Of a stretch of 40,000 nt of DNA, positions 2,745 through 38,801 are shown one piece after another. Position 1 is the stretch's first letter. Each line of letters opens with the position of its first letter. The notes under the pieces were generated by a model that was given only the letters and a program-made list of their open reading frames with translations, did no database searches and had not been told where the DNA came from. Made by a program: the position numbers and the translations under genes. Source of the DNA: Patescibacteria group bacterium. GTDB lineage: Bacteria; Patescibacteriota; Gracilibacteria; BD1-5; UBA6164. The stretch lies in NCBI GenBank assembly GCA_965227835.1, contig OZ245768.1, positions 719,619-759,618 of the forward strand, read 5' to 3'.

Positions 2745-6239
<3,495 letters not shown>

Positions 6240-7100: not shown

Positions 7101-8277
7101 ACCCCAAAGTAAGAAATGAAGTGCAATTAAAAGAGAAGAAAATATAGTATTCCCCGTAGGGTAATAACATTATTTTCTAATATAATAAGATATGTACTGA
7201 CAATTAATATTCCAAGAGAGAGAAAGTATTGAATTTCATTTAAATAAATGATTAAAGAAAAAAGATATAGCATCAATACTAAAAAGATCAGAATCAACAA
7301 TAAGCAGAGAAATATATAGAAACTCAGTAAAAAAACGATGAACCAATAAAAAAATATATCTAGCACTAGAAGCAGAAATGAAATCATATCAAAGACGATG
7401 GCTAACGAAAACTCAATCAATGAAGATAAATATGAATAATGATATGAAAAACTTCATAATAGAACAACTATCAATAACAGAAATACAAATGTCTCCAAAA
7501 ACAATTGCTAAGAAACGGAATAATACTCAAACAGATAAAAAGAAACATATTTCTCATACAAGTATATATTCTTGGCTAGAAACTGGTATGTGAAATAAAT
7601 ATAAAGAACTATTATTATATAAACATAAAGGTTATAGAAAGAAAAAACAACAAACAGAAAGAGTGAAAATTAAAAATAGAGTTAGTATTAAAGATAGACC
7701 TGAAATAATAAACAACAGAGAAGAGAAAGGACATATTGAGGCTGATTTAATTGTTTCTAAAAAATGATTTAAATGAGCTATACTTACATTGGTTGATAGA
7801 AAGACTAGATTACCTAAAATTTTTAAATTAAAAGATAAGTCAAGTGAGAATATAATTAGACTAATAGCTTGAGTTAAAGATGATATATGAATTAAATCTG
7901 TTACTTTTGATAATTGAATGGAATTTGCTAAACATTATTTGTTAAATGATATATGAATAGATACTTACTTTTGTGAACCTTATTCTTCTTGGCAGAAGTG
8001 AAGTGTTGAGAATTTAAATAGGATTATCAGGAGATTTTTTCCTAAATGAACTATATTTGATTATGTAAGTGATGAAAAAATAAAGAGTATTTGCGATATA
8101 TTAGCAAATACTCCTAGAGAAATACTTGGATTTATTTCTCCTAATCAAGCACACTTTTCACAACCTTAGAGTTGTGTTTGGAATTATAACAAAATTTCTT
8201 ATAATCTCAAAAACAAAAAATTTTCTTAATGCTATATTTTCTTCTTTAAGTTCATTTAAAAAATTGCACTTCGGGGT
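7101..8277 (+). mobile_element. IS30-family insertion sequence (~1.18 kb), intact
   Basis: One transposase ORF is flanked by imperfect terminal inverted repeats. The left end is ACCCCAAAGTAAGAAATGAAGTGCAATT...AGAAGAAAATATAG. The reverse complement of the right end (8221-8277) is AAACCCCGAAGTGCAATT...AAGAAGAAAATATAG. Confidence 0.85.
7192..8169 (+). CDS. IS30-family DDE transposase
   Basis: 978 nt = 326 codons with TGA=Gly. The N-terminal HTH-like part is MYGQLIFQERESIEFHLNKGLKKKDIASILKRSESTISREIYRNS. The catalytic part is GHIEADLIVSKKGFKGAILTLVDRKTRL...VTFDNGMEFAKH...[29 protein letters not shown], the classic IS30 D-D-E context. TGA sits at conserved Gly positions (DNG, QKG, PKG). Confidence 0.9.
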
Positions 8278-9824: not shown

Positions 9825-9860
9825 AAAACTCCCGAAGTAATTAATTACTTCGGGAGTTTT
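9825..9860. terminator. bidirectional intrinsic terminator (perfect 36-nt palindrome)
   Basis: AAAACTCCCGAAGTAATT|AATTACTTCGGGAGTTTT, with an A-run on one side and a T-run on the other. It lies 18 nt downstream of the pstS-like stop. Confidence 0.8.
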
Positions 9861-9877
9861 TAATGAATCTCCTTATT

Positions 9878-10867
9878 TTAATTTGAAGAAAAAGGACCAT
9901 TTGCAACTCCAAATTCAGGAATTTCACGGTCATCATCAGACAAAGGAATTAATCCCAAATCAGAAAGATATCCATCTTCACCCCAAGTATCTTCATCTGT
10001 AAATTCATCTACATAAAGCCTGATACCAGGTTTTTTATCAATATGATTATTTTTTACATAAAACCATAAAGACCTAGATATAGGATAATTTCCTAGTGCA
10101 ATATTTTCAAAAGAGGGATAAAAGCCATCAATTAAAGCCCCCACTACTTTATCTTCATTTTGAGCTAGAAAAGAATATCCAGCTATACCTAAGAGATTTT
10201 TGTCTGAAGAAAGCTTGTTTATTATGGCATTATCATTTTCACCAGCTTCAATATAAACTCCATCTTCACGAATTTTCAAAGGAACTCCTGATTTATCAGA
10301 AAATTCTTCTAAAACCAATTCTTCAAAAGAATCACGAGTACCCGATGAACTCGGAGGTCCCATAATCTTGATATCAATATCAGGAAGACTTGAATCTATT
10401 TCAGACCATTTCTTATAAGGATTCTCAACAATAATACCATTAATTTTTAGTGTAGAGTTGAGAGCATAAAATAGGTTTTCCCTAGTAAGAGACAAAGGTT
10501 CAAAATCTATGCTATGCATAATAACAATACCATCATATCCTATACGGTATTCTGTTACATCCAAAACCCCATTTTGCTTACATAGAGAAACTTCTTTATT
10601 CTTAATCCTACGGGAAGCATTAGTAATTGAAGGAGTATTTATATCTTGCCCTTGACAAAATAATTTTGCTCCACCACCAGATCCAGTACTCTTCATGCTA
10701 ATAGTTATTTCTGGATACTCATTTTGAACCTCCAAAGCTACGGCAGAAGAATGTGGAAATACAGTTGAAGATCCAACAATTTCAAATTCTTTTATAACTT
10801 CATCCGAAAACAAAAAAGCAGGAAAAGCTAAAGAAAGAAAACAAAAAGTAATTTTGAGTATTTTCAT
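9878..10867 (-). CDS. pstS: phosphate-type ABC transporter substrate-binding protein (PstS/PBP family), secreted; standard-code style gene
   Basis: Uninterrupted 329-aa ORF in the standard-code track. It has an N-terminal signal peptide (MKILKITFCFLSLAFPAFLFS). PstS-family motifs are present: GSSTVFP, STGSGGGAKLF, ITNASRRIK and GYDGIVI. AGGAGG lies 6 nt upstream of the ATG. About 26 Gly codons, none of them TGA. Confidence 0.85.
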   Translation of the reverse strand: MKILKITFCFLSLAFPAFLFSDEVIKEFEIVGSSTVFPHSSAVALEVQNEYPEITISMKSTGSGGGAKLFCQGQDINTPSITNASRRIKNKEVSLCKQNGVLDVTEYRIGYDGIVIMHSIDFEPLSLTRENLFYALNSTLKINGIIVENPYKKWSEIDSSLPDIDIKIMGPPSSSGTRDSFEELVLEEFSDKSGVPLKIREDGVYIEAGENDNAIINKLSSDKNLLGIAGYSFLAQNEDKVVGALIDGFYPSFENIALGNYPISRSLWFYVKNNHIDKKPGIRLYVDEFTDEDTWGEDGYLSDLGLIPLSDDDREIPEFGVANGPFSSN

Positions 10868-11150
10868 AATTTCCTCCTATGTTTAACTCAAAAAAGTGTA
10901 TCATTAACTAAATTAAAAAAGCTAAATCTACACTAACCTATAATCTCTTTCAAATTTAAAGAGCTGTATAGAGATAAAAATAAATACCTCTATATTTTTA
11001 AAATTAATAAATAAAAAATTTTTGTCAAGCCATTTATGATAACAAAAACTTGCTATTTTTCAATAATACATTTTAATAGATTTTACTTTCTATATGAAAG
11101 TATTGTTTTATTGTTCTTTAAAATTATCAAAGAAATTCAAGGAGTTTTTT

Positions 11151-13415
11151 ATGAATATTTCTATAGGTTTGCTCTATATAGCTGGAGCAATTCTAGCAAT
11201 TATAACTTTCTACATTTTTTTCTTATCCCAAGCTAGAGCTAGAAGATATTATTGGTCTTCATACATAAATACCTTAAGTATAAATACAGGTTTTTTTATG
11301 ATGGGCTTTGGACTTATAAGTATCTTGTTACTCTTTTATAATCTGGGAATAGGTAGCTTTAAGTTTTTAAGTGAAATGGGAGTATCAAACATAATATTGG
11401 GAGAAAAATGGAATCCTCCCAAAGCATATACTCCTGGCATAGAAGAAAATTTAGGCTTTCTTCCTCTGGATATGACAACTTTAATGGTTGCATTTATATC
11501 TGGAGGGGTATCTATTTTTATAGGTCGTGCTATAGGAATTGCTACCTCTCAAATGAAAAAAAGAAAGTTTATAATGCTTCTTTTTCTATATATTTTCCTG
11601 ATGATACCCTCTGTAACTTGGGCATTTATGGGATCTATATACCTACAACCTCTTTTGAGATGGTTATTTTTTTTGCAGGATGAAAGAAATATACTTTCAA
11701 CAGCCCTAACAATCGCTGGATTAAATATACCAATTGTTGCTATTTTAACAAATGCAGCAATTTCTGGAATACCAAAGTTTGTATGGGACAATGCAAGAAT
11801 TAACCAAGCAGATCCTGCTACTAGATGGAAGTGGTATTTAAAACCCGAAATAAAATGGCAACTATGGATTACATCTATCGTTGTTATAATGAGGGGAGCC
11901 GCAGAAACTACAATTGCAAGCCGTCTGATGGGAGGAGCTCAAGATTTATTTAGAAATTACTTTTGGGAATGGCCATTTTTAAGTGGAAATACTCTGTCAA
12001 AAGTTGCTTCTGAATATCTTCGTCCAGAATCTCTTGATCATCCTATGGTAGCACCGGGTGGAGCTGATTTTGCACTTCTTAAGATTTTCATAAATATGGG
12101 GATAGTCGTAGTTTTATCTTTGACATTTATCTATATTAGAAAGCTTAAAAATAGCAAAAATACACAAATAGATATACCCAAAAAAACATCTAAGTTTGAA
12201 ATAAATCTGTTTAGTAAATGGATTAAATCATCTTGTTTGCTTGGTATATTTGTGGTTATTTTTGTATTTAGTGCACTGGTTCACAAAGGAGGTCATATGA
12301 TCTTCACTACACAGATAAAATATCAAGGTGTATGTAGTGATTCAGGAGAAATAAAGAGAAAAGACTTAAGGAAATTTTTATCTGAAAAGTTAGGAATTGA
12401 GGAGTTAAGTCGTAAAGAAAAAAGAGAGATTTTAAGGCTATACTCCAAAAGTACGGCTAAGGGTGTGAAGTGCAATAGTGGTGAAGAACTTGATATATGG
12501 TTATCGGCAAGTACACAAACCGATGGTTATGTAAAAGGTTTAAACCCTGTTATGAAAACTTTGTTTGAAAACAGGAGTTTTGGACCAAAATCACCACAAC
12601 ATGGTTGGATAGATACACTTATGCGAAAAGGTTCTGTAAAAAGTTTATCTGATAGAAATTTGGATGATAATTCAAGTCTCATAAGGATTACCTGGAACAA
12701 AACCCTTTTTGAAAACAGAAAATTTTCCAACGATCCTTTTAAAAATGGATTTAGAGCTAATTTTTTGTCATCACTTCAAAATAGCTTTGTGGCTATATTT
12801 GCAATAATATCAGCATTTCTTGGAGCTTTAGTAATTAGGTTTTTCTTGTGGAAAAAAATCAGAGTTCATACATCCATAGTTTTAGCTCTTTCTTTGAGTA
12901 TACCTGCTCTTGGATATGGATATATGGGTAAAATAAACTTTGTTGATATCCTTGGTTTACCTAATGCAGCTAATATTACACTCTATATGACTACTTGGAT
13001 GGTTGTATTTATGATTGCAATAGTAAACTTTACTTCAAGATTACAAGAGATACCTGAGAGTGCTCTTAATACAGGCAGAAGTCATTCTTTTAGGAGAATT
13101 GAAACTATAGTTAAGTATGTGGTTAGCAAGAATTTTAAAAATTTTTGTTTAATTGCTGCCCTTGCTATGACTGCTGGTTTACAGGAAACTTCTCAGTGGT
13201 TCCCTGTAGGTGGACTAGATTTGTCCTTGGGAGAACCTTCTCTTGATTTGTTGGGAGAAGCAAGACCATTGAATGCAATTGCATATAGCTTTAGAGCTTT
13301 TAGTGATCCTGCTTTTGAGGCATTGGAAGCATGCTTACATATTGGGTTAATATTTACCATACTACCATTTGCAACTTTTGCTGCATATTTTGCATATTTA
13401 GAAAATAGGAGGTGA
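11151..13415 (+). CDS. fused PstC/PstA-like ABC permease (754 aa) with a ~160-aa soluble insert between the halves; standard-code style gene
   Basis: The ORF-track frame is 11094-13415. ATG at 11151 is preferred because AAGGAG lies 6 nt upstream. It is a multi-pass membrane protein with two EAA-like permease loops: NARINQADPATRWKWYLKPEIKWQLW...RGAAETT and ESALNTGRSHSFRRIETIVKYV...TAGLQETS. There is no in-frame TGA, and the ORF ends AGG AGG TGA. Confidence 0.8.
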   Translation: MNISIGLLYIAGAILAIITFYIFFLSQARARRYYWSSYINTLSINTGFFMMGFGLISILLLFYNLGIGSFKFLSEMGVSNIILGEKWNPPKAYTPGIEENLGFLPLDMTTLMVAFISGGVSIFIGRAIGIATSQMKKRKFIMLLFLYIFLMIPSVTWAFMGSIYLQPLLRWLFFLQDERNILSTALTIAGLNIPIVAILTNAAISGIPKFVWDNARINQADPATRWKWYLKPEIKWQLWITSIVVIMRGAAETTIASRLMGGAQDLFRNYFWEWPFLSGNTLSKVASEYLRPESLDHPMVAPGGADFALLKIFINMGIVVVLSLTFIYIRKLKNSKNTQIDIPKKTSKFEINLFSKWIKSSCLLGIFVVIFVFSALVHKGGHMIFTTQIKYQGVCSDSGEIKRKDLRKFLSEKLGIEELSRKEKREILRLYSKSTAKGVKCNSGEELDIWLSASTQTDGYVKGLNPVMKTLFENRSFGPKSPQHGWIDTLMRKGSVKSLSDRNLDDNSSLIRITWNKTLFENRKFSNDPFKNGFRANFLSSLQNSFVAIFAIISAFLGALVIRFFLWKKIRVHTSIVLALSLSIPALGYGYMGKINFVDILGLPNAANITLYMTTWMVVFMIAIVNFTSRLQEIPESALNTGRSHSFRRIETIVKYVVSKNFKNFCLIAALAMTAGLQETSQWFPVGGLDLSLGEPSLDLLGEARPLNAIAYSFRAFSDPAFEALEACLHIGLIFTILPFATFAAYFAYLENRR

Positions 13416-13420
13416 AACTA

Positions 13421-13456
13421 AAAGAGAACCATCAAGTTTGATGGTTCTCTTTTTTA
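13421..13456 (+). terminator. intrinsic terminator after the permease
   Basis: AGAGAACCATC-AAGTTT-GATGGTTCTCT followed by TTTTT. Confidence 0.8.
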
Positions 13457-13543: not shown

Positions 13544-14614
13544 CTATTTATTATTTTTTTTATTAAAACTTCTATTCATTCTATCATAGATTCTTCTAGC
13601 TTCTTCTTCATCTCTATAAAGATGAGGTATTTTGTGATTAGCTTTGGGTATTTCTTGTCATTCTCCTAATAAATCTTTTACTACTTGTGTTTTAGGATTT
13701 TCAAGAACTTTATCTGTAGGTCAGCTTTCAACTATAGTACCATTATCCATAGCTATTACCTTATTACTTGATTTAACTATATTAAGACTATGACAAACAA
13801 CCATAACTAAATCAATAATTTTTGAATTTATAAGTTCTCCTAAAAGTGACATAATTTCTCTTTGGATTTTTGGATCAAGTGCAGAGAGTCATTCATCAAA
13901 TATAAGTCTCTTTCATCACATCATAAATCTGGTTGCAAGGGAAATTCTTTGCTGTTGTCATCCAGAAAAACTTCAAGGATAATCTTTGAGTCTAGTTCAA
14001 GAAGTAGTTCAGTTTTCCATAAATGCTTTTCTCTGTTCTTCTGTTTGAAAAAACACTTCATTTAGACTGGCATTTTGTATAGCCTCTCAAAGCCTCTTAA
14101 GGGTTTCTGTTCTAATTTCTGAATATTCACGGGTAGTAGAATCAGGCATAATTATATTTTGTTCTACTGTAAGATTTGAAAGAGGATGATCTCACTGGGG
14201 CATAGTAATAATATTTCTACGAATTTTTCGTGCTCAACCAAACTCTTCAAATCAATTCGCTCATAAATCATAAGTTCATCTATTGGGATCTTCTGGATGA
14301 TGAGAAAAATTAACATTTCATCTTTGCCAATACTCCCCATTTTTAGGTTTCCTTCTAGGGCTTTTTTCCAAAGCTTCATCTTCTTCAGACAAACGACCAG
14401 GTATTTTAATAAATGTAGTTTTTCAACATCAAGAAGGTCATATAATAGAAGCTATTTCTCAAGCATAAAAATCAGCATGAATATTGTGAAGTACTGTTTT
14501 TTTTCAGTATCAAGCAAATACATTTCTAAATTCAAGTACTTTGTCTCACATTGATTCTATTCTCTCCCTGGATTGATCTGGAGTATTAGCATCTAAGTAA
14601 GGTATTCTCAACAT
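13544..14614 (-). CDS. ABC transporter ATP-binding protein (native, TGA-rich)
   Basis: 1071 nt = 357 codons with TGA=Gly. Walker A GPSGCGKT is encoded TGA CCT TCT TGA TGT TGA AAA ACT. The signature FSGGQQQR is TTT TCT GGA TGA CAA CAG CAA AGA. Walker B is LIFDEGLSALD. The QQQR signature fits PstB/PhnC/GlnQ-type ATPases, but substrate class cannot be assigned from sequence alone. Confidence 0.85.
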
Positions 14615-19065: not shown

Positions 19066-19737
19066 TTCAACACATCGGGATAAAAACCCCTATCTTTAGA
19101 TAGTTAAGACACCGAAGGTGTAAGTGATAGAAATTGAATAAATGAGATGTGTTGTGACATAGGGTTTTAAACCCCGTTGCCTTCAGGCCGATTCTAAAGA
19201 AAAAAGTGTAAAAAATCAATAGAATAAATAAAATAGTGTTAAAAACTAACACTAGAGAGAATGAAATACCAAAAAAGTAGTCATGCGACATATGATGTCA
19301 GATACCATATAGTATGGATAACAAAATACAGAAATCCATTCATGAAAAAGAGATACAAGATAGATTGGAAAAGATCATAAGATGAATAAGTAAAAAGCTA
19401 TGAGTAATAATAATAAAGATATGAATGGAAGAAGATCATGTACATATGTATTGTAGGATACCGTTAACTAAACCAATATCTACAATAGTATGACATATAA
19501 AGTGAGAAAGTTCTAAGGCAATAAAGAGGTATTTTTACAAAGAAATTAAGAGATGGTATTGGAAGACATGAAATATATGGTGAGTATGATATTTTGTATC
19601 TAGTGTATGAGAGATAAATTGAGAAATAATATCTAATTATGTGGAACAACAGTGAGAAGAAGAGAATAAGATTGAAGAGATAGAGCTTTAAATTTCAGTA
19701 CAAATAAAAGCCCCGTGCCTTCAGGCCGGGGTAGAAG
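19066..19737 (+). mobile_element. IS200/IS605-family element (tnpA only)
   Basis: A Y1/HUH transposase gene is flanked by subterminal hairpins. The left ones are GGGTTTTAAACCCC and GCCTTCAGGC at 19163-19190. The right one is GCCCCGTGCCTTCAGGCCGGGG at 19708-19731. There are no inverted terminal repeats, as expected for this family. The boundaries are approximate. Confidence 0.75.
19261..19691 (+). pseudogene. tnpA: IS200-type TnpA (HUH/Y1 transposase) with a single frameshift
   Basis: Frame 1 reads MKYQKSSHATYDVRYHIVWITKYRNPFMKK and then stops at 19378-19380. Shifting one base at the A-run ATGAAAAAG (about 19342-19350) gives EIQDRLEKIIRGISKKLGVIIIKIGMEEDHVHMYCRIPLTKPISTIVGHIKGESSKAIKRYF...RWYWKTGNIWGVGYFVSSVGEINGEIISNYVEQQ. 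This carries the HxH and catalytic Tyr motifs, with TGA=Gly. Confidence 0.8.
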
Positions 19738-21448: not shown

Positions 21449-24088
21449 TTATAATCTTATTTTTTTTGAAGTCATAAGAATAGAAAGATGAGTTTTGAGC
21501 ACTTTCACTAAATTGTTATAATTCTCTAAAGGAAATCACTTAACTCTTTGTTGTTCTCATTTTATATATAGCTGAGTTTCTATAACAGACCTAGATTCTC
21601 CATAATCTGTACTTGCTTCTACTGATGCATCTAGTCATAATCAATATCAAAGTACAGATATATTAAGATTTTGTTTTAAATAATTAATATTTTTATCTTC
21701 ATTTCAAGATTTAAAAAATTGGTTGCTATTACCATCTCAATCACTAAGTATAAACAATGCTCATTTTTTACTCCTTTCTATACTTTTTAATCCATTTGAA
21801 ACTCAATTATAATTTTTACTGTTTCAACCACTATTTTCTTTAACTCACTTTTTAAACTCTTGGAAAAATTTGGGGTTAATTTCTCAGTTTAGAAATAGTT
21901 TTTCTTTTATCTCTATAACACAATCTGAAAAAAGAGTTATGTTTAAATTTATTTCTAACTGTTCAGATATTATTCAAAGTAGTAATACGGAGAAATAAGC
22001 ATTAGTAATTTTTGATGGATTATCAAATTCATTTTCTTGTAAATTTTCCATACTTCAGCTTATATCTATAGCAATTGATATATCTTTTAGTTTTGTATCT
22101 ATATTTCATACCAAAGCATTCTTGGGTTTTTTATTTTTTGAAAATATATTTGGATTTCCAGTTGAAATTCTAGATATGGATTTAGAATTTATAACTAAAT
22201 CTCATTGAGGTAGTCAATCTTTTGTTCTTTTTAATTTCTGTCAAAGTCTTCTTCTTTTTGAATTTTCTAACCTTTCACTTATAACTTTTTGCAGATAATT
22301 TACTATATTTAAAGCATCTTTCATAACATAATTAAGAACTCTTTTTTCTCATTCTTCTAAGTTTCTATAACTGTCTAGTTTTATTTCTTTAACTTGTGTA
22401 AATTTAGGATTTCAAAGAACCTCTCTCATTAACTCATTTAAATATTCTTCTGTTTCATCTTTTTCTGCTTTGGAATTATCACCATTGTCTTTTTCACTTT
22501 GACTAGATTCTGAATCAGAGCTTTTATCTTGTTTACTTTCACCTTTTTGATATCATTTTGGATCAGAGTTATCGTTTTTTTGTTTATCATTTTGACTAGA
22601 TTCTGAATCAGAGCTTTTATCTTGTTTACTTTCACCTTTTTGATATCATTTTGGATCAGAGTTATCGTTTTTCTGTTCATCATTTTCTAACTCATCTGAT
22701 TCTGAATCAGAACCATTATTTGCAGGTTGAAGTGGAGTAGCATCAAGTGTTTCCCATTTTCAATTTATATAAACTTCAGACCAGGAATGTCATCTGTTTT
22801 TATTTAGTTTTGTTTTTTTATCTTTAGTATAAGATTTTACTCAAGAAACAAGTCTTGCAGGATATCACATAGACCTTGAAAGAGCAACAAGTAAAATATT
22901 TGCAGTCATACATTCTATTCAAGTTTTTTCAGATATTATATTGTCTATATAATCATTAGCATCTCTAGATTTGTCTCTTATCTTTTTTTGATTTGATACA
23001 TTATATTCGTTTTCCTTAGATATAAAACTTCTTAATTCATATGGATCTTTGAACATAGAAATATCAAATTTTCAAGTATATATAGGTTTAGAACTATTTA
23101 AAATGTCTGACTGGCTTGGTTTTTCATCAGCAAAAAAAACGGTTTTTTTTGCTATTTTTATATCTGCTATTTTTATACCTTGTCTTTTTGTTTTTATGTA
23201 GTGTATACCTTCTTTATCTTTATAAATATCTATTTCTTCTTTGTTATAATCAACTACCTCATATTGTTTTAGTAGTGGCAAAACATAAAAAGAATCTCCA
23301 TGAGTTAATCACAAAGTCATAGTATGTATTTTCTCGTATTCTTGATTTTCTCTTATAGACAGTATTTCTCTTTTTGTTTTTTTCTTGATAAATTTGATAT
23401 CTTTATGTAAAAATTTCTCTCAAATTGACACTAAAAAATTTCCACTTGGTATTGGTGGTTCTATAGTAGCATAAACACCAGTTTCTTCGTTTTGTAGTTG
23501 TTCAAGTTTCTCTATATCTTTTTGAGAAAAATCAATTTGTTCTTCTGTAAATGCATCTTCTAGGTCGTCTCTTTCTTCGGGATTTAATATATCCTCCACT
23601 TCTTGTGATGTATCTTTTTCAAAAATTCCCATAAGTCTCTCCAAAGCAAATTCAGATTTAAACTTATTAAATAGCTTAGTTTCTATATCTTCTCAAAAGC
23701 AATCCCCTATTTCATTGAATTTTCTTTCTATTTCTTTGTAAATTTTCCAACCATAAGCATTTCTTTTTTGTTTAGAAAATGAATCATTTTTCATTTTTTT
23801 TATTTCATCTATTTCTTTAAAAAAATTTTCTAAAAATCAAAGATAAAATAAATCAGAAAGTATATCTACTTCTTGATTTGTTTTATTAGAAATATTTGTT
23901 TTTAAATAGCCGTTTATAGAATTAGTTTTATATGATTTTATATCATAATCTGCGAAACTTTCTAGGTATCTTAAATTACACAATAATTCTTCATAGTTTT
24001 GATTTCATAAATTATTTAACTTTTGTATTAAAATATTTCTATCATTTACTGGTTCTAACTGATGTATATTGTTTTTATGTTCTTGCAT
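21449..24088 (-). CDS. 879-aa multidomain protein: unknown N-terminal region, transglutaminase-like cysteine protease core, acidic/Ser-rich duplicated linker, C-terminal von Willebrand A (VWA) domain
   Basis: 2640 nt = 880 codons with TGA=Gly. The transglutaminase core is IECMTANILLVALSRSMGYPARLVSGV...RGHSWSEVYINGKWETLDATP (Cys, His, Asp). The VWA MIDAS motif is ISIAIDISGSM, followed later by ALFILSDGDGN. The start lies 8 nt after the stop of the upstream AAA gene. Confidence 0.85.
22501..22672. repeat. tandem duplication, 93-nt period (31 aa), inside the TGase-VWA gene
   Basis: Positions 22501-22579 and 22594-22672 are identical by eye. They encode KNDNSDPKGYQKGESKQDKSSDSESSQ twice. Confidence 0.9.
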
Positions 24089-31898: not shown

Positions 31899-31945
31899 TT
31901 TTTATGAAATTAGAAAAGAGGCAACCTACGGCTGCCTCTTTGAAA

Positions 31946-32619
31946 TCACTCCTTATTTGATTGTCCTTCATACAAGTTAAGTCCTATCATTGCTACCAAA
32001 GCAAGAAAAAGTTGAGGCAAAATAACATATGGAATACCATATGGAACTAAAAATATAATATGTATGGGAATTACATATAATAGTATCAGTTCAGGCTTAC
32101 TATCAACAAATACTTGCTTAAATCCATCAAGTTTATATGTAAATAACGTTGTTACTATTAAGGAAATTAAAGCAATTAAAAAGATATAATATAGAAAATC
32201 AGTTAAACCAAAGATAATACCAAAGAAAAAACCAAAAAATAAAGATGAAAAGATATTAAAAAAAGAGAGATAAATATAATTCCAACTGTTTGAAAAATTC
32301 TGTGACTACCACTTTCATAAAAATCCCCTTTTTCGCTCTTTTTTCGATATTTTCCTAGGTATTCTATATATTTGTATCTATACAATATAATTGCCTCAAA
32401 TAATGTTGATATTGCAATCATAATATTAATAGTAAACAACATATCCTTGCTTCCTTGAAAGTATTCTTCAATTTCTTGTGAATATACTATCCAAGCTGAC
32501 ATAATTATCAGTAACGACGGTGCTAGTTTTTGATAAAAACGATAATTAAAAAATACATTTTTACCAAAGAAATGACACAACTTTAAGGGCATGTCATATA
32601 AGCTTTGTTTAATATTCAT
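31946..32619 (-). pseudogene. cassette copy 1: membrane-protein paralog split by a stop and frameshift (138-aa N-part plus ~85-aa C-part)
   Basis: ORF 32203-32619 (MNIKQSLYDMPLKLCHFFGKNVFFNYRFYQKLAPSLL...) ends at TAA. The C-terminal homology continues in another frame (...LILLYVIPIHIIFLVPYGIPYVILPQLFLALVAMIGLNLYEGQSNKE) to TGA at 31946-31948. Confidence 0.75.
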
Positions 32620-32663
32620 TTTTTCCTCCTTTTAAAACAATTGAAAAGAATAAAAACAAAAAT

Positions 32664-32691
32664 ATTATAATAAATTTTATTTAAAAGTCAA
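32664..32691 (-). promoter_or_regulatory. sigma-70-like promoter of cassette copy 1 (TTGACT-16 nt-TATAAT on the minus strand)
   Basis: The -35 is at 32691-32686 and the -10 at 32669-32664, about 45 nt upstream of the AGGAGG-led ATG at 32619. Confidence 0.55.
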
Positions 32692-32827
32692 TAAAAAATG
32701 GTAGAGTCTATCACGAAATGTAACCTTTAGAAGATATGATATACTCTAAAAGATATAATTAAATTTTTGTGATATGAAATACTGAATTTTATTAAAAAAC
32801 AGGCAGCCTACGGCTGCCTGTTTGAAA

Positions 32828-33445
32828 TCACTCCTTATTTTGTCCTTCATACAAGTTAAATCCTATCATTACTACCAAAGCAAGAAAAAGTTGAGGAAGA
32901 AAAGCATAGAAAGTACCATATGGAGCTAAGGGTATAAATGGAAATAAGGATATAATATGTATACATATAATAGTATCAGTTCAACCTTGTTATAAATCAA
33001 TTTACTCTTATACACCATGTTTGATGTACATAATTTAGTAATCATTTACGAAACTTAATATAAATCCATCTAAATATGAGTCAAAAATATGATAATGTGA
33101 TATTATAAGGAATAACATAGAAAGAGTTAATATGATTGAAACAAGGAAATTATGAAAAATGGAAATAATAATAATAATAAGTGATTATAAAATACCAAGT
33201 GGAATAACACCAATTAAGAATCCAAAACCACCAAAATAAGAGAAATAAATATGAAATGTTTCAAATTTATAAGCTCCACTATCATAATAAATAGTTTACC
33301 AGGTATTCTATATAGTTGTATCTATACAGTATACCTGCCTGAACTAATGTTAGTATTGCAATAATGGTAATGTTAAAGAATTTAAATCTCCAACCTGAAA
33401 GTGAATATACTATCCAAGCTGTCATAATTATCAGTACCGGTGCAG
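32828..33445 (-). pseudogene. cassette copy 2: heavily degraded paralog lacking N-terminus, SD and promoter
   Basis: Nucleotide similarity to copies 1 and 3 is visible at the 3' end (32828-32990) and at CCAAGCTGTCATAATTATCAGTACCGGTGCAG (33411-33442, compare 32491-32524). There are multiple stops in all frames. Confidence 0.7.
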
Positions 33446-33852
33446 TTTTTTGTATTTTATATTTTATTTTTTACCTTTATATAAGTAAAAATCAGTAGAT
33501 TTTATATTGATTGAATTTTATAAAGATAAAGTTAGCTTAAATAAGTCATTTATAGAAATACCTACAATACATATGTACATGATCTTCTTCCATTCATATC
33601 TTTATTATTATTAAAGATAAAACATTAAAAATAGCTTAATATGTCCTACTTTATTTCAAAGTAAAATATAGGTCATACAATTTTTCACTTATAAAAAGTG
33701 GGTTTTTATAGTTTTGAGAAAATGGATAGAATCTATAACGAAATGCAACTTTTAGAAGACATGATATACTCTAAAAGATATAATTAAATTTTTGTGATAT
33801 GAAAATATGAATTTTATTAAAAAATAGGCAGCCTACGGCTGCCTATTTGATG

Positions 33853-34542
33853 TCACTCCTTGTTTATATTTATTTGTTTATTATTCCTATATAACTTAAT
33901 ACCTATAACTATTATCAGAAAAGTAAAAGCATATAAAAATATATAAGGAACAAAAGTTTGGATAAAGCCATATGTCGCTATTAATAAAAGTTTTACAGGA
34001 ATTATATATAGTAGCAATAATTCCATTTTGTTATTTAAATCAATCCCAAGATCAAAAATCGGATCTTTCATTGTAATTAAAATTAACTTCACAATTACCA
34101 AAGATAATGTAATACCAATTATCAGTGCTCCAATATAAGAACCACGGGTAAGAAAAAAAGCCATAAAACCTAAAACGACACCCCAAGAAACAGAACAAAG
34201 TATGATTGAACTTATACCTAGAAGTTTTAAGTATTTATTTTCAAAGGATTCTTCACCTTCTTTTATATAGTCTCCTAGATACTTTATATAATTAAATCGG
34301 TACAATATCGCTATTTCAATCAATGTAAGTGTAATAATAATTGTATTAATTACTAAACTAACAATTTCATTTTGAAAACCTTGCCCAATTTCCTGCATAA
34401 TCAACACATAAACTAACATAATCAATTGTAAGGATGGCACCAACTTTCCATAAAAATTATAGCTAAAAACTATATTTTTACTAGAAGAATGACATAACTC
34501 TGGAGTTATATCATAATCATATAAGTTTTGTTTAATATTCAT
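33853..34542 (-). CDS. cassette copy 3: intact 229-aa polytopic membrane protein of unknown function; standard-code style gene
   Basis: Uninterrupted ORF in the standard-code track. AGGAGG lies 7 nt upstream. The N-terminus MNIKQNLYDYDITPELCHSSSKNIVFSYNFYGKLVPSL is paralogous to copy 1. The ORF ends AAG GAG TGA and is followed by the hairpin terminator. Confidence 0.8.
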   Translation of the reverse strand: MNIKQNLYDYDITPELCHSSSKNIVFSYNFYGKLVPSLQLIMLVYVLIMQEIGQGFQNEIVSLVINTIIITLTLIEIAILYRFNYIKYLGDYIKEGEESFENKYLKLLGISSIILCSVSWGVVLGFMAFFLTRGSYIGALIIGITLSLVIVKLILITMKDPIFDLGIDLNNKMELLLLYIIPVKLLLIATYGFIQTFVPYIFLYAFTFLIIVIGIKLYRNNKQININKE

Positions 34543-34677
34543 TTTTACCTCCTTTTAAAATAATTGAAAAGAATAAAAACATATTTATTATAATAAGTTT
34601 TACTCGTAACGCAACAAAAATAGTTGAAGAAAATTCAACTATTTTTATTTTATTAAAATATATAAAGTTATTAATAG

Positions 34678-36051
34678 TTAAGATACATCTCTAAGTGATG
34701 CACTAGCAAATTCTCTTTGAAGTTTTTTTTCGTATCAATCTCAAATTATAAAATCCATTGTTTCTTTTAAACTAAAACCTCATATATCTCTATTTGTAAA
34801 TTCTAATCATTTTAAAAGCATAGAATTATATACTTCCATAACCTTTTTCTCAAAAATCAATTTAAAGTCCTTAAAATCTAATCAGATTATTTCAGAAAAT
34901 TCACCACAAAGACCATATATTTCTATAAACCTAGATAAAAATCATTCACCATGTATAGATCAAATATCATCTAGTAATATTTCTCATATATCAAGGCTTA
35001 CTCAGTTTATGGTAGTATCTACAAGCAAACAATCAGAACCAAATCTATATGATAAACCTAAACCATGCAATAATCCATGATAATACATTATATTATGTAT
35101 AAAATTACTTACTATTTCTTCTTTATTATCATTTTTAAAAATTAAATTCAAATCTAGTCATCATTTAAACTTTAAAATATCAGCTACTCTAGTTGATACT
35201 CAGAAGTTTGCATATATCATATTACCATGAGGTCATTTTTTTAAAATCTCCTCTATCAATTTATCAAAAGATCAAAAACCCTTAACTTCATCCATACTAA
35301 AAAAAGATTTTGAAAATTGAACAATATTTGTTAGAGAATTATCATCCTCTTTAATAATAGATTTTATAGTTTCTATGTAATTAGATCAATCAATTCATTT
35401 TTTAAGTTCCGTAACTGATATTGGCATAATTGTAGGAGCAAATTCTCAATTTATTTGCAAATTTACTTCTTGAATATAAGCTCATATTTTAGCCTCCATT
35501 AATAGTCTTTGTGAAGTTTCAGATCATATAAAAGGAGGGGCATAAGAACCTTCTTTAAGTTTCCTAAATTTATTACCACGGTATAAATCTGCTCATTTTA
35601 AATTTATGCTTATACCTTTTTTAAAATAATTGGTACTTCTTCATCAATGAAATTCTCTTCTCCATCAATTTTTAAGAGTATTTTTGGAACTTAAAATGTT
35701 ACTAACTTTTGAAGGAGTCCATAAAGTTAATCATTTGAAGAAATTTATATCTCGAGAATTAGATTTTAACAATGCCAACTCACCTGTTGTTTTTACTCAT
35801 AATGCCTTACTTAAATGTTTATAGTATTTTTCCATAAATAATTCTTTTTCTCTTTTTTTTCCTAATATTGGAGATAGTAATTCTAATAATTCTATATCTA
35901 CTTCTACATCTGAATCTGCATTTATGCCTCAATATTCTTCTGATTTTTCATCTAATCATATTTCTAAATATCATTCGTCTGCAAAAAATAAACTAGGATT
36001 CTCAGTAAATCTAACATTTTTATTCTCTAAAGCTTTTTTTAATATTTCCAT
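34678..36051 (-). CDS. hypothetical protein (457 aa), native code
   Basis: 1374 nt = 458 codons with many in-frame TGA read as Gly. Sequence: MEILKKALENKNVRFTENPSLFFADEGYLEIGLDEKSEEYGG...HGLLHGLGLSYRFGSDCLLVDTT.... No recognisable domain. An AT-rich hairpin terminator lies at 34617-34647. Confidence 0.65.
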
Positions 36052-36184
36052 ATATTTTTTATTAATTTTTAAAGTTTTTACATTTTAATTATTATAATTT
36101 ATTTGTCAAGAAAAAAATTACATTAATTTAATTAAAGTATGGTAAAATAAAAATAGTAAAATTTTATTTTCTTATTTTGAATAT

Positions 36185-37180: not shown

Positions 37181-38386
37181 GGGACCTCTGCAATATTGTT
37201 GAAAAGAACAAGAAAAAAGTGATTTTGAATAAAAATCACTTTTTTTGAAGAATATATAAGATAATTTCTATGAATTATGCCTTTTTTTAGGTATAATTTC
37301 CAAATTTAGGCACAATTCACCTATTAGAAAGCTATATATACCTCCTTGCCAATAGTTCAAAATTATAAATAGCACAAGATAAAAACCAGTGCATAGCATT
37401 CTTAACTAATCATCTATATCTTGTTTTATAATTTCAATATTTAGCCTTTAAAATAGAAAAAGGATGTTCTACTCTTGCCCTAATAGTAGATTTAATTCTA
37501 TTTTGTTCTTTTTGATAAGAAGTCAACGGATTATTTCTAGATCATCTTTCATTGAACTCTCACTTAATTCATAACTCATCTAAAAATTTTATTTTATCTT
37601 TACTTATATAGGCACTATCTCAATATGCCTCTTCACTCTCATCTCAAGTCATTAAAGTATCAGATAATTGTGAATCATGTATCTTAGCTGTCGTATATGT
37701 TGTATTCATTACAAAGTCTCCTCTCTTTGTTGTTTCAATATGAGCTTTATATCAATGATAACTTCTTCAATTCTTCTTTGTAAAACTAGCTTCCTTATCT
37801 CTTGTATTTTCTCATTTATTATTCTTTCTTCATTTTGGTGATTCTATTATAGTACCATCTTGAATAAATCACTTTTCTACTGTAAATCACATTTCAGCTA
37901 AAATAAATTGAGTCATTGTAAATATAGTTTCCTGACTTCAGTTTTCTGATAATTCATTTCTAAATCTACATATTGTTGTTTCATCTGGTATATCTTTAGA
38001 CTCCGATATTCATAGAAACTTTTGAAAGCTATTTCTGTCTCTTATTTGATCTTCTATTTCCGGATCTGATAATCCATATAATCATTGAAGAAATAGTATT
38101 TTTAACATTTTTTGTATTTCCATTCTTGGTCTTCAAACTCATCAATCTGATATTTCTCTAGATAAATTAATTTTATTTGATATTGATTCCCATGGGACTA
38201 CTTTATCTAATTTTGTTAGAAACTTTTCTGTTCTTGTAATTCATAACTCATTTTGGAAATAATTCAAAAATGTTTGTTGTTCTTTAAATGGTGACATAAT
38301 CATTAAAAAAAAATTAAAATATTTATCATATTTTAATCTTTTTATTATATTTTTGTAATTTAAATCTATCTTTTTGCAGAGGTCCC
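37181..38386 (-). mobile_element. IS5-family insertion sequence (~1.2 kb) with 13-bp perfect terminal inverted repeats
   Basis: GGGACCTCTGCAA at 37181-37193 and TTGCAGAGGTCCC at 38374-38386. TTAT is present on both flanks, a candidate 4-bp target duplication as is typical of IS5. Confidence 0.85.
37332..38297 (-). CDS. IS5-family DDE transposase
   Basis: 966 nt = 322 codons with TGA=Gly. Motifs are GGVGRPRM, LYGLSDPEIEDQIRDRNSFQKFLGI, IPDETTICRFRNEL, FIQDGTIIESP, KKNGRSYHGYKAHI, AYGDSAYIS and [29 protein letters not shown]. Confidence 0.9.
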
Positions 38387-38801
38387 TTATGTTATTAGAA
38401 TAAAACAAACAAATCAAAGAAAACTATAAAAAATAGGTTAATACCAAAAATGTGTTCTATTTTTTTAGGCAGAAGTCTTTAGCCTTTTGCTCTTGATAGG
38501 AATTTCTATTTTTGAAGAAAAACATACCAGATTTATAGCGAAATTTAGCTCTTTACTTTTATGTAAAATTTCTATATTCAAAAAAATCTCTGGATTTGCA
38601 ACGAAAATACTTTTATTTTTGATTAATTTTTAAAATACTCTAAATGAATAATTACATAAATAAAAAATAAAATTATTGATTCATCCTGTTTTTATTTATG
38701 TAAAATATTTAATAATTTTTATAGCAAAAAATATTTGACTTTTATAGTAAAAAATATATATTTTTTATAGAGATAATTTATTTATTTTAAAAGAATATAA
38801 T

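Follow-up and report, generated by a model that had tools for sequence, protein, structure and literature searches.

Several described systems invite comparison with a tandem array of membrane-protein cassettes found in a Gracilibacteria genome. Phage morons are promoter-gene-terminator units that often encode inner-membrane exclusion proteins, for example HK97 gp15 (PMC3594210). Putative Gracilibacteria and Absconditabacteria phages lack in-frame TGA and are compatible with both genetic codes 11 and 25 (Liu et al. 2023, PMC10746230). The AID (acquired interbacterial defence) and rAID-1 (recombinase-associated AID) clusters of Bacteroidales are arrays of orphan immunity genes (Ross et al., bioRxiv 10.1101/471110). 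The array studied here occupies positions 31909-34620 of a 40,000-nucleotide stretch of contig OZ245768.1 (hereafter the window, to which all coordinates refer) and had been noticed in an earlier reading of the sequence, the original prediction. Our analysis suggests that we are probably dealing with moron-like transcription units that were acquired by horizontal transfer and are now decaying; they would be expressed with stop-codon read-through and may have a protective role.

Like a moron, the cassette brings along its own predicted sigma-70-type promoter and its own intrinsic terminator, sits between unrelated genes, differs from its neighbours in part of its sequence signature and has as its product a small predicted inner-membrane protein, as do several moron exclusion proteins. 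Unlike morons, the array lies outside a prophage, among chromosomal genes (M23 peptidase, MscS, YmdB) and insertion sequence (IS) elements; it is tandemly triplicated, its protein has no similarity to any PHROG, and its GC content equals that of the surroundings, with codon dialect and Shine-Dalgarno (SD) use alone being different. With the dual-code phages the cassettes share a code-25 host, the lack of in-frame TGA, products that should be viable in either code and, less clearly, a second kind of stop shortly after the first. Those phages, in contrast, are whole genomes recovered through CRISPR spacer matches, whereas only three chromosomal cassettes are present here, in an insertion in which no phage or mobile-element hallmark genes were found. 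The cassettes are also without a match in IMG/VR or GenBank phages, and their primary stop is TGA itself, so that the products in the two codes differ by 12 residues. The AID and rAID-1 clusters resemble the locus in being arrays of small genes (diverged paralogs or unrelated) that were acquired by horizontal transfer, and in having repetitive intergenic sequence (here a 147-nt junction repeat, 89% identical), skewed composition and signs of turnover. They differ in that no XerD-family tyrosine recombinase was detected among the Pfam-scanned window proteins, the array protein has no homology to known immunity genes (Pfam, NCBIfam, PADLOC, PDB), and the array comprises three cassettes of a single family in an organism with no known cognate toxin system. 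Because defining features of each kind are missing (no prophage, no recombinase, no immunity homology), the array was filed under none of the three.

The genetic code of the host is the reference against which the array has to be read. The window has a GC content of 26%, and nearly all of its long open reading frames (ORFs) emerge only if TGA counts as a sense codon. TGA makes up 60 of the 92 Gly codons of RpoB (2745-6239, minus strand), including those at the invariant glycines in GRHGNKG and in the (L)MG(A/S)NM(Q/M)RQAVP motif. Since TGA occupies these positions, the host code is code 25 (UGA=Gly). The contig that bears the array is 1,489,121 bp long, and the closest relatives of the flanking M23 peptidase gene are found in metagenome-assembled genomes (MAGs) of Gracilibacteria/Patescibacteria. 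Translation initiation in this host appears to be SD-independent, because none of the 21 native genes listed has GGAG or GAGG within 25 nt upstream; these upstream regions are purely A/T-rich.

Repeat families (D1-D10) and a three-way alignment (A1) bear out the arrangement of three head-to-tail units, the unit order being promoter, SD, coding sequence (CDS), TGA, hairpin and spacer. A full unit starts with about 100 nt of spacer, a sigma-70-type promoter and a 5' untranslated region of about 40 nt with AGGAGG; its CDS ends in AAG GAG TGA, the terminal codons in copies 1, 2 and 3, and is followed after 7 nt by a 12-bp GC-rich hairpin and a U-run. As had been described, the array is wedged between native genes, with the stop of the M23 gene (31896-98) on one side and the terminator of the 34678-36051 gene on the other. 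The features of the array are as follows.

31909-34620, minus strand: tandem array of three head-to-tail units
34587-34614, minus strand: copy 3 promoter-like site, -35 TTGCGT (34614-34609), 16-nt spacer, -10 TATAAT (34592-34587), aligned to the copy 1 promoter (A1/A3)
34548-34553, minus strand: copy 3 Shine-Dalgarno sequence AGGAGG, 5 nt before the ATG
33853-34542, minus strand: copy 3 CDS, intact, 229 aa to TGA; with UGA=Gly it runs on to TAA 33817-19 and gives 241 aa with the tail GHQIGSRRLPIF
33822-33848, minus strand: copy 3 terminator hairpin, 12 bp, loop GUA, then U6 (dG -19.2 kcal/mol, z -5.45)
33719-33821, minus strand: spacer between copies 3 and 2, within a 147-nt repeat 89% identical to 32694-32840 (family D1, alignment A3)
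33447-33718, minus strand: unrelated stretch of about 270 nt in place of the copy 2 promoter, SD and first ~32 codons (from the alignments)
32828-33446, minus strand: what remains of the copy 2 CDS (about residue 33 onward, ending in AAG GAG TGA), with several frameshifts and TAA/TAG stops
32797-32823, minus strand: copy 2 terminator hairpin (dG -21.1 kcal/mol, z -5.78)
32692-32796, minus strand: spacer between copies 2 and 1, holding a near-palindrome at 32729-32749
32664-32691, minus strand: copy 1 promoter-like site, TTGACT-16-TATAAT, 11/12 matches
32625-32630, minus strand: copy 1 Shine-Dalgarno sequence AGGAGG
31946-32619, minus strand: copy 1 CDS, 674 nt (3n+2), frame 0 open for 138 aa to TAA 32203-05
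32234-32239, minus strand: T6 run, the likeliest site of the single 1-nt deletion of copy 1 (lesion possible anywhere in 32206-32305)
31915-31941, minus strand: copy 1 terminator hairpin (dG -20.4 kcal/mol, z -5.12)

Predicted promoters are carried by copies 1 and 3 alone, and the same two copies have the AGGAGG sequence; the promoter and SD that had been assigned to every cassette thus hold for these copies and not for copy 2, from which the SD is lost. In another strain, represented by contig L013, the -35 hexamer of copy 3 reads TTGTGT. The spacer is present in two copies and conserved, as had been claimed, with a length of about 100 nt instead of the predicted 120 nt.

The strongest contrast between the array and its neighbours concerns the genetic dialect. 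None of the 27 Gly codons of the cassettes is TGA, in keeping with the earlier description of TGA-free genes ending in AAG GAG TGA, and the same is true of all 77 Gly codons in the pst genes located elsewhere in the window, versus a TGA share of 68% (n=568) in native genes. Copy 3 alone has 14 Gly codons; if TGA were used at the native share of 0.68, all of them would be free of it with a probability of about 1e-7. AGGAGG precedes copies 1 and 3 as well as pstS, versus GGAG or GAGG upstream of 0/21 native genes. When Gly is excluded, the codon usage of the cassettes is nearer to the pst-island table than to the native table (-0.043 and -0.048), whereas all 20 native genes tested go the opposite way; Ile, Lys and Arg codon usage, together with TGA usage, sets the cassettes apart from their neighbours. 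GC-rich intrinsic terminators follow both the cassettes and the pst genes. As these four independent markers (TGA share, SD, codon usage and terminators) agree, the view that the cassettes are standard-code, "foreign dialect" genes among native code-25 genes is well supported by the sequence. It was considered whether they could instead form a native lineage-specific family, in which the lack of TGA, the SDs and the terminators arose by chance or by gene-specific selection. Such a family would fit the GC content, which is the same as that of the genome, the failure to find a donor, and the presence in the same interval of a 457-aa ORFan gene, which shows that species-specific genes in native dialect are also hosted there. 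This explanation is very improbable given the expected frequency of TGA in Gly codons, the lack of SDs upstream of native genes, the deviation of the non-Gly codon usage and the absence of the family from 12 Gracilibacteria loci searched in six frames with code 25.

The foreign dialect shared with the pst island, which the original prediction had proposed, found support in the TGA-free Gly codons, the SD, the non-Gly codon usage and the absence from two related loci (L001 and L004). This second standard-dialect island (9878-13456, with genes at 9878-13415) holds two genes: one of the PstS family with an AGGAGG SD (9878-10867, minus strand) and one for 773 aa whose N-terminal part is PstC-like (11094-13415, plus strand) and whose stop TGA is followed by AAC TAA. 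Its GC-richer hairpin terminators lie at about 9828-9865 and 13420-13456. The island resembles the cassettes in having no TGA in 77 Gly codons, an SD before pstS and GC-richer terminators, in the end of pstCA in TGA with TAA two codons on, and in a similar non-native codon usage. It differs in having recognisable homologs, if below curated cut-offs (PstS family; PstC), and in consisting of single-copy, intact genes with no sequence relation to the cassettes. The adjoining PstB-like ATPase gene (13544-14614, minus strand) is fully native, with 23 of 30 Gly codons being TGA, and an insertion splits its ABC domain. The transporter thus appears to combine imported pst parts with a native PstB-like part.

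Synteny with the relatives L001 and L004 was analyzed by tblastn with code 25. In L001, a MAG locus, a membrane-protein gene is followed by YmdB, a 124-aa gene, M23, MscS and g38802, with a gap of 19 nt between M23 and MscS, and in L004 MscS directly follows M23; over the relatives the two genes are co-directional and 19-32 nt apart. Because M23 and MscS are adjacent in these two distant relatives, the segment that separates them here can be regarded as an insertion, which left M23 full-length. The features of this interval other than the array are listed below.

31899-36184, no strand assigned: 4.3-kb segment between M23 and MscS, absent in L001 and L004, comprising the array and the 457-aa gene
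34678-36051, minus strand: 457-aa ORFan gene, co-oriented with and upstream of the array, native dialect (28 TGA, no SD), absent from relatives
34613-34649, minus strand: AT-rich terminator hairpin of the 457-aa gene, right array boundary (inverted repeat I18; dG -18.1, z -5.37)

Two nucleotides at the upstream end of the copy 3 -35 hexamer also belong to the terminator of the 457-aa gene. The 457-aa protein has a single relative in the databases, encoded on an 8.66-kb ENA contig from the other strain (L013, 98.6% nucleotide identity). Starting with the terminator of the 457-aa gene, that sequence extends through the promoter and SD of copy 3 and over its first 40 codons, where it breaks off; 2 substitutions were counted in 281 nt. 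This contig bears on the concern that the array is an assembly chimera, in which DNA from a co-occurring organism with the standard code was wrongly joined into a Gracilibacteria contig. The dialect changes sharply at both edges, repeats of this kind commonly confuse assemblies, and the L013 contig itself stops inside copy 3. Nevertheless, the junction of native DNA with copy 3 was assembled independently from another sample and strain, which argues against misassembly at the right-hand junction; the array lies inside a 1.49-Mb contig, and both edges are located exactly at terminators in intergenic DNA, next to a full-length M23 gene. A chimera, which the original prediction had named as a possible refutation, is hence extremely unlikely. 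Within the 457-aa ORFan gene, 22 of the 39 substitutions that separate the two strains over 2.76 kb fall into 237 nt (35804-36040), and 15 of 17 amino acid changes affect the first 85 residues, which suggests a recombination tract or diversifying selection at its N-terminus.

The three copies are in different stages of decay, as had been noticed, while the lesions themselves had to be described anew. Copy 3 is intact as predicted (229-aa ORF, 34542 to 33853) and, when read with UGA=Gly, corresponds to database protein P0001 (241 aa). Copy 1 had been thought to be split by a stop and a frameshift. The frameshift was confirmed, and the TAA at 32203-05 is its consequence and not a separate lesion: beyond frame 0 the remainder of the gene is open in the -1 frame down to AAG GAG TGA (31948-46), and addition of one T to the T6 run restores a continuous 224-aa ORF that reads ...HLYFFGFFFG... 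The equivalent stretch of copy 2, FHIYFSYFGGFGF, is in a single frame and matches the copy 1 sequence with seven Ts. Copy 1 therefore carries only one lesion, a 1-nt deletion for which the T6 run is the most likely site. Copy 2 has lost its 5' part, though not the entire 5' half as initially stated; the loss comprises the promoter, the SD and about 32 codons, and the roughly 270 nt that replaced them have no significant similarity to the other array units. With either code, 11 or 25, copy 2 is a dead gene. The idea that its stops could be TGA=Gly sense codons was rejected as they are TAA and TAG. In the cassettes a TAA follows the TGA by 12 codons and is doubled in copies 2 and 3, a spacing that is about what chance would give in AT-rich DNA. 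The read-through tail under code 25 reads G[H/F]Q[I/R/T]GSRRLP[I/L/V]F across the copies.

The GC-rich hairpin terminator predicted for every copy was verified, with a folding free energy (dG) of -19 to -21 kcal/mol and z about -5, followed by a T-run. The hairpin motif is confined to the array, with no other occurrence in the 40-kb window (0.01 expected). The base pair just outside the GGCAGCC/GGCUGCC core covaries over the three copies (G-C, C-G and U-A), and the copy 1 hairpin contains a G.U that is able to pair in the sense transcript only. These features provide modest (n=3 sequences) but real evidence for selection on the RNA hairpin in sense orientation; since the variable residues of the read-through tail track the covariation of the hairpin, the constraint would act on the RNA and not on the tail. 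The convergent M23 gene stops 17 nt away from the hairpin of copy 1, which may also terminate this native gene. No Rfam family matched the array over threshold, and the only sub-threshold hits were driven by the terminator. An identity as REP/RAYT or attC element was rejected because the hairpin is found only in the array, directly 3' of the stops, and is followed by a U-run. The units also differ from integron cassettes in carrying their own promoters and a 27-nt perfect hairpin with U-run that is terminator-like and not attC-like, and no integrase was found.

A further claim concerned the near-palindrome in the spacer, TAGAAGATAT-G-ATATACTCTA (32729-32749), which had been suggested to be an operator. 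Eight of its ten positions pair, and the spacer contains three palindromes of that quality versus 0.9+/-1.3 in shuffled sequences, with three or more present in 10.6% of shuffles; window-wide they occur about once per 107 nt. A T-to-C change weakens the near-palindrome in the second spacer copy, and its position about 37-57 nt upstream of the -35 hexamer is not that of an operator. The operator role was thus rejected as chance-level.

Copies 1 and 3 share only 41% amino acid identity, with nonsynonymous and synonymous divergence of dN 0.53 and dS 1.23 (dN/dS 0.43), which indicates that their divergence is old and that the protein was formerly under purifying selection. Neutral non-coding DNA is expected to diverge like synonymous sites. 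The flanks of the cassettes are far more alike than that, with 87% identity over 104 nt of 5' flank, 86-92% in the terminator region and 89% in the spacer-containing repeat; the best 50-column block of the alignment is 96% identical, versus 33-69% over most of the body. This observation suggests that the flanks are selected, homogenised by gene conversion, or used as recombination handles. As the deep divergence has left no TGA in the genes, the copies most likely diversified under the standard code and came in as one block.

Conserved flanks around variable bodies (about 87-92% versus about 41% amino acid identity) are also a property of variable-gene families with conserved 5' and 3' ends, and the sole defect of copy 1 is a 1-nt length change in a homopolymer. 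Both would be expected of a contingency or surface-variation locus, in which slippage in the copy 1 T-run switches expression or expressed and silent cassettes recombine via their flanks. The tract, however, is no longer than T6, or possibly T7 in the ancestor, and runs of this kind are frequent at 26% GC, copy 2 is irreversibly dead, and neither a site-specific recombinase nor an invertible element lies nearby, the nearest mobile-element gene being an unrelated IS5-family DDE transposase (37332-38417). A largely buried six-helix protein with short loops would moreover offer a poor antigenic surface, and we consider this explanation quite unlikely.

The copy 3 protein contains six hydrophobic segments (about 34-52, 60-80, 107-131, 134-156, 174-194 and 197-217), while its N-terminus, the loops 81-106 and 157-173 and its C-terminus are rich in K/R. 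This pattern indicates six predicted transmembrane (TM) helices with N-in/C-in topology. A word-indexed search of 5.8 billion clusters, with the single sequence and with a two-sequence profile, and an exhaustive phmmer search of 1.84 billion representatives recovered only the protein itself and the copy 1 fragment. No match to the cassette protein was obtained by tblastn against plasmids and phages (GenBank phages included) or by protein-pattern scans of GTDB genomes, IMG/VR and JGI metagenomes, the exact DNA pattern of the stop-plus-hairpin region was not found in metagenomes and viral contigs, and the family was absent from the 12 Gracilibacteria loci (six-frame, code 25). The TGA-containing homologs that would have spoken for a native origin were thus found in none of the collections searched, and neither was a homolog with informative neighbours. 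The host and the ENA strain are translated in the protein database (P0001-P0004) with TGA=Trp (code 4) and not Gly, which deflates identities to the code-25 translation (90% reported for a 96%-identical ortholog). A CPBP/Abi immunity protein was rejected as identity, as PF02517 was unmatched even at E<=10 and the motifs EExxxR, FxxxH and HxxxN/D were not seen in the alignment of copies 1 and 3.

Taken together, the array probably entered the genome by horizontal transfer, and probably en bloc, from a standard-code AT-rich organism or from a mobile element that avoids TGA and works in both codes, recently enough that no Gly codon has drifted to TGA. Before entry the cassettes could have formed a diversified allele pool that was exchanged or homogenised via the conserved flanks, or the regulatory flanks were under selection. 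Transcription would start at the predicted promoter of each unit and end at the GC-rich hairpin. The host ribosome is predicted to decode the donor UGA stop as Gly and to read 12 codons through the hairpin to UAA. The resulting protein would have 241 aa, reside in the inner membrane with six TM helices (N-in/C-in) and carry a short basic tail on the cytoplasmic side. Copy 3 alone should still be able to give rise to it, with copy 1 off because of the 1-nt deletion and copy 2 a dead remnant.

An alternative to which a smaller but real share of probability belongs is that the array, while acquired as described, is idle, functionless debris in this host, in which case copy 3 merely has not been hit yet and the purifying selection dates from the donor. 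Two of the three copies are inactivated, the family is known from one species only, native genes have no SD, so that SD-led translation may be inefficient, and UGA=Gly decoding imposes a non-native 12-aa tail. Speaking against debris, 2 substitutions (one in the -35 hexamer and one synonymous) separate the two strains over the roughly 200 nt that span the copy 3 promoter, its SD and its first 40 codons, a rate no higher than in the surrounding DNA, the 229-codon ORF is fully open in DNA of 26% GC, and the single lesion of copy 1 implies a very recent inactivation.

Several further results weigh against an acquired array with a protective role. With two of three copies dead, the array possibly has no function in the host. 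Its GC content of 22-28% is at the host level and not distinctive. No match to the cassette protein was found in Pfam, NCBIfam, PADLOC, PHROGs or PDB sequences. As no donor or homolog was found, transfer is deduced from dialect and synteny and not from phylogeny, and the relatives used for synteny are distant (43-45% amino acid identity in M23). The co-inserted 457-aa gene is in native dialect, which implies that the interval was filled in more than one step. Structure prediction with AlphaFold2 (AF2) reached a mean confidence (pLDDT) of 60 for the single sequence and 40 with the paralog added, so that the models were unusable, and the Foldseek search that had been recommended returned nothing but noise at E>=3 for the AF2 model against PDB. 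Finally, a Pfam scan of the window proteins identified no toxin, bacteriocin, phage or recombinase genes near the array. The immunity-protein and surface-variation arrays of which the original prediction had been reminded gain no support from these results.

With respect to function, it can be proposed tentatively, by analogy with the systems described above, that the cassettes encode a protective membrane protein, for example one that excludes superinfecting phages or, as an orphan immunity protein, guards against a toxin acting on membranes; such a protein would act by occupying the cytoplasmic membrane. A more far-reaching proposal, and an unlikely one, is that the locus is an acquired interbacterial-defence island of an episymbiotic or predatory bacterium belonging to the Candidate Phyla Radiation (CPR). 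Its diversified orphan immunity or exclusion genes would stem from the standard-code host, from neighbours or from a dual-code phage, would be TGA-free since this pool crosses the code boundary, and would be expressed with the read-through tail.

The rest of the window contains housekeeping genes and native-dialect IS elements. An IS5-family element (DDE_Tnp_1 and DUF772 transposase, 20 TGA) at 37182-38386 is precisely absent in L013 at about position 5905; inverted repeats, GGGACCTCTGCAA...TTGCAGAGGTCCC, lie at its termini, and the target sequence TTAT appears to be duplicated. An IS200-like Y1 transposase gene (19314-19691, plus strand) has TGA at 11 of 11 Gly codons and is thus in native dialect, as is a gene at 7192-8169 (plus strand) with an N-terminal HTH_38 domain and a weak sub-threshold match to an integrase core (rve), which is possibly IS30-like. 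This amounts to up to three IS elements per 40 kb in a small genome (about 1.5 Mb). An 879-aa transglutaminase-core protein (21449-24088, minus strand) contains an acidic Ser-rich segment, NDNSDPKGYQKGESKQDKSSDSESSQ, that is perfectly duplicated in tandem; after it comes a protein of 986 aa that has two AAA_5 (dynein/MoxR-like) domains. For the 457-aa protein no family hit at all was obtained, and it gives no toxin clue.

Stop-codon reassignment is often called a firewall against gene exchange. The array represents a clear, datable import across the code boundary that is mostly pseudogenised, and its presence together with the pst island in the same window suggests that the code barrier leaks in the direction that is still open. 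Standard-code genes arrive in the UGA=Gly genome with donor-style promoters, SDs and terminators, and their UGA stops would give rise to short read-through tails. In a host with apparently SD-independent initiation, the efficiency with which imported SD-led genes are translated comes into question. TGA share, SD and codon usage, as dialect markers, offer an annotation-free way to spot and roughly date imports into code-25 genomes. If the array were indeed a defence island, it would be the first example of a functional, recurrent flow of defence cassettes across the genetic-code firewall. The cassette protein family has no relatives among about 15 billion predicted proteins and, if copy 3 is active, would stand for a membrane-protein family not described before, from a donor that has not been sampled and that may be the host of the symbiont.

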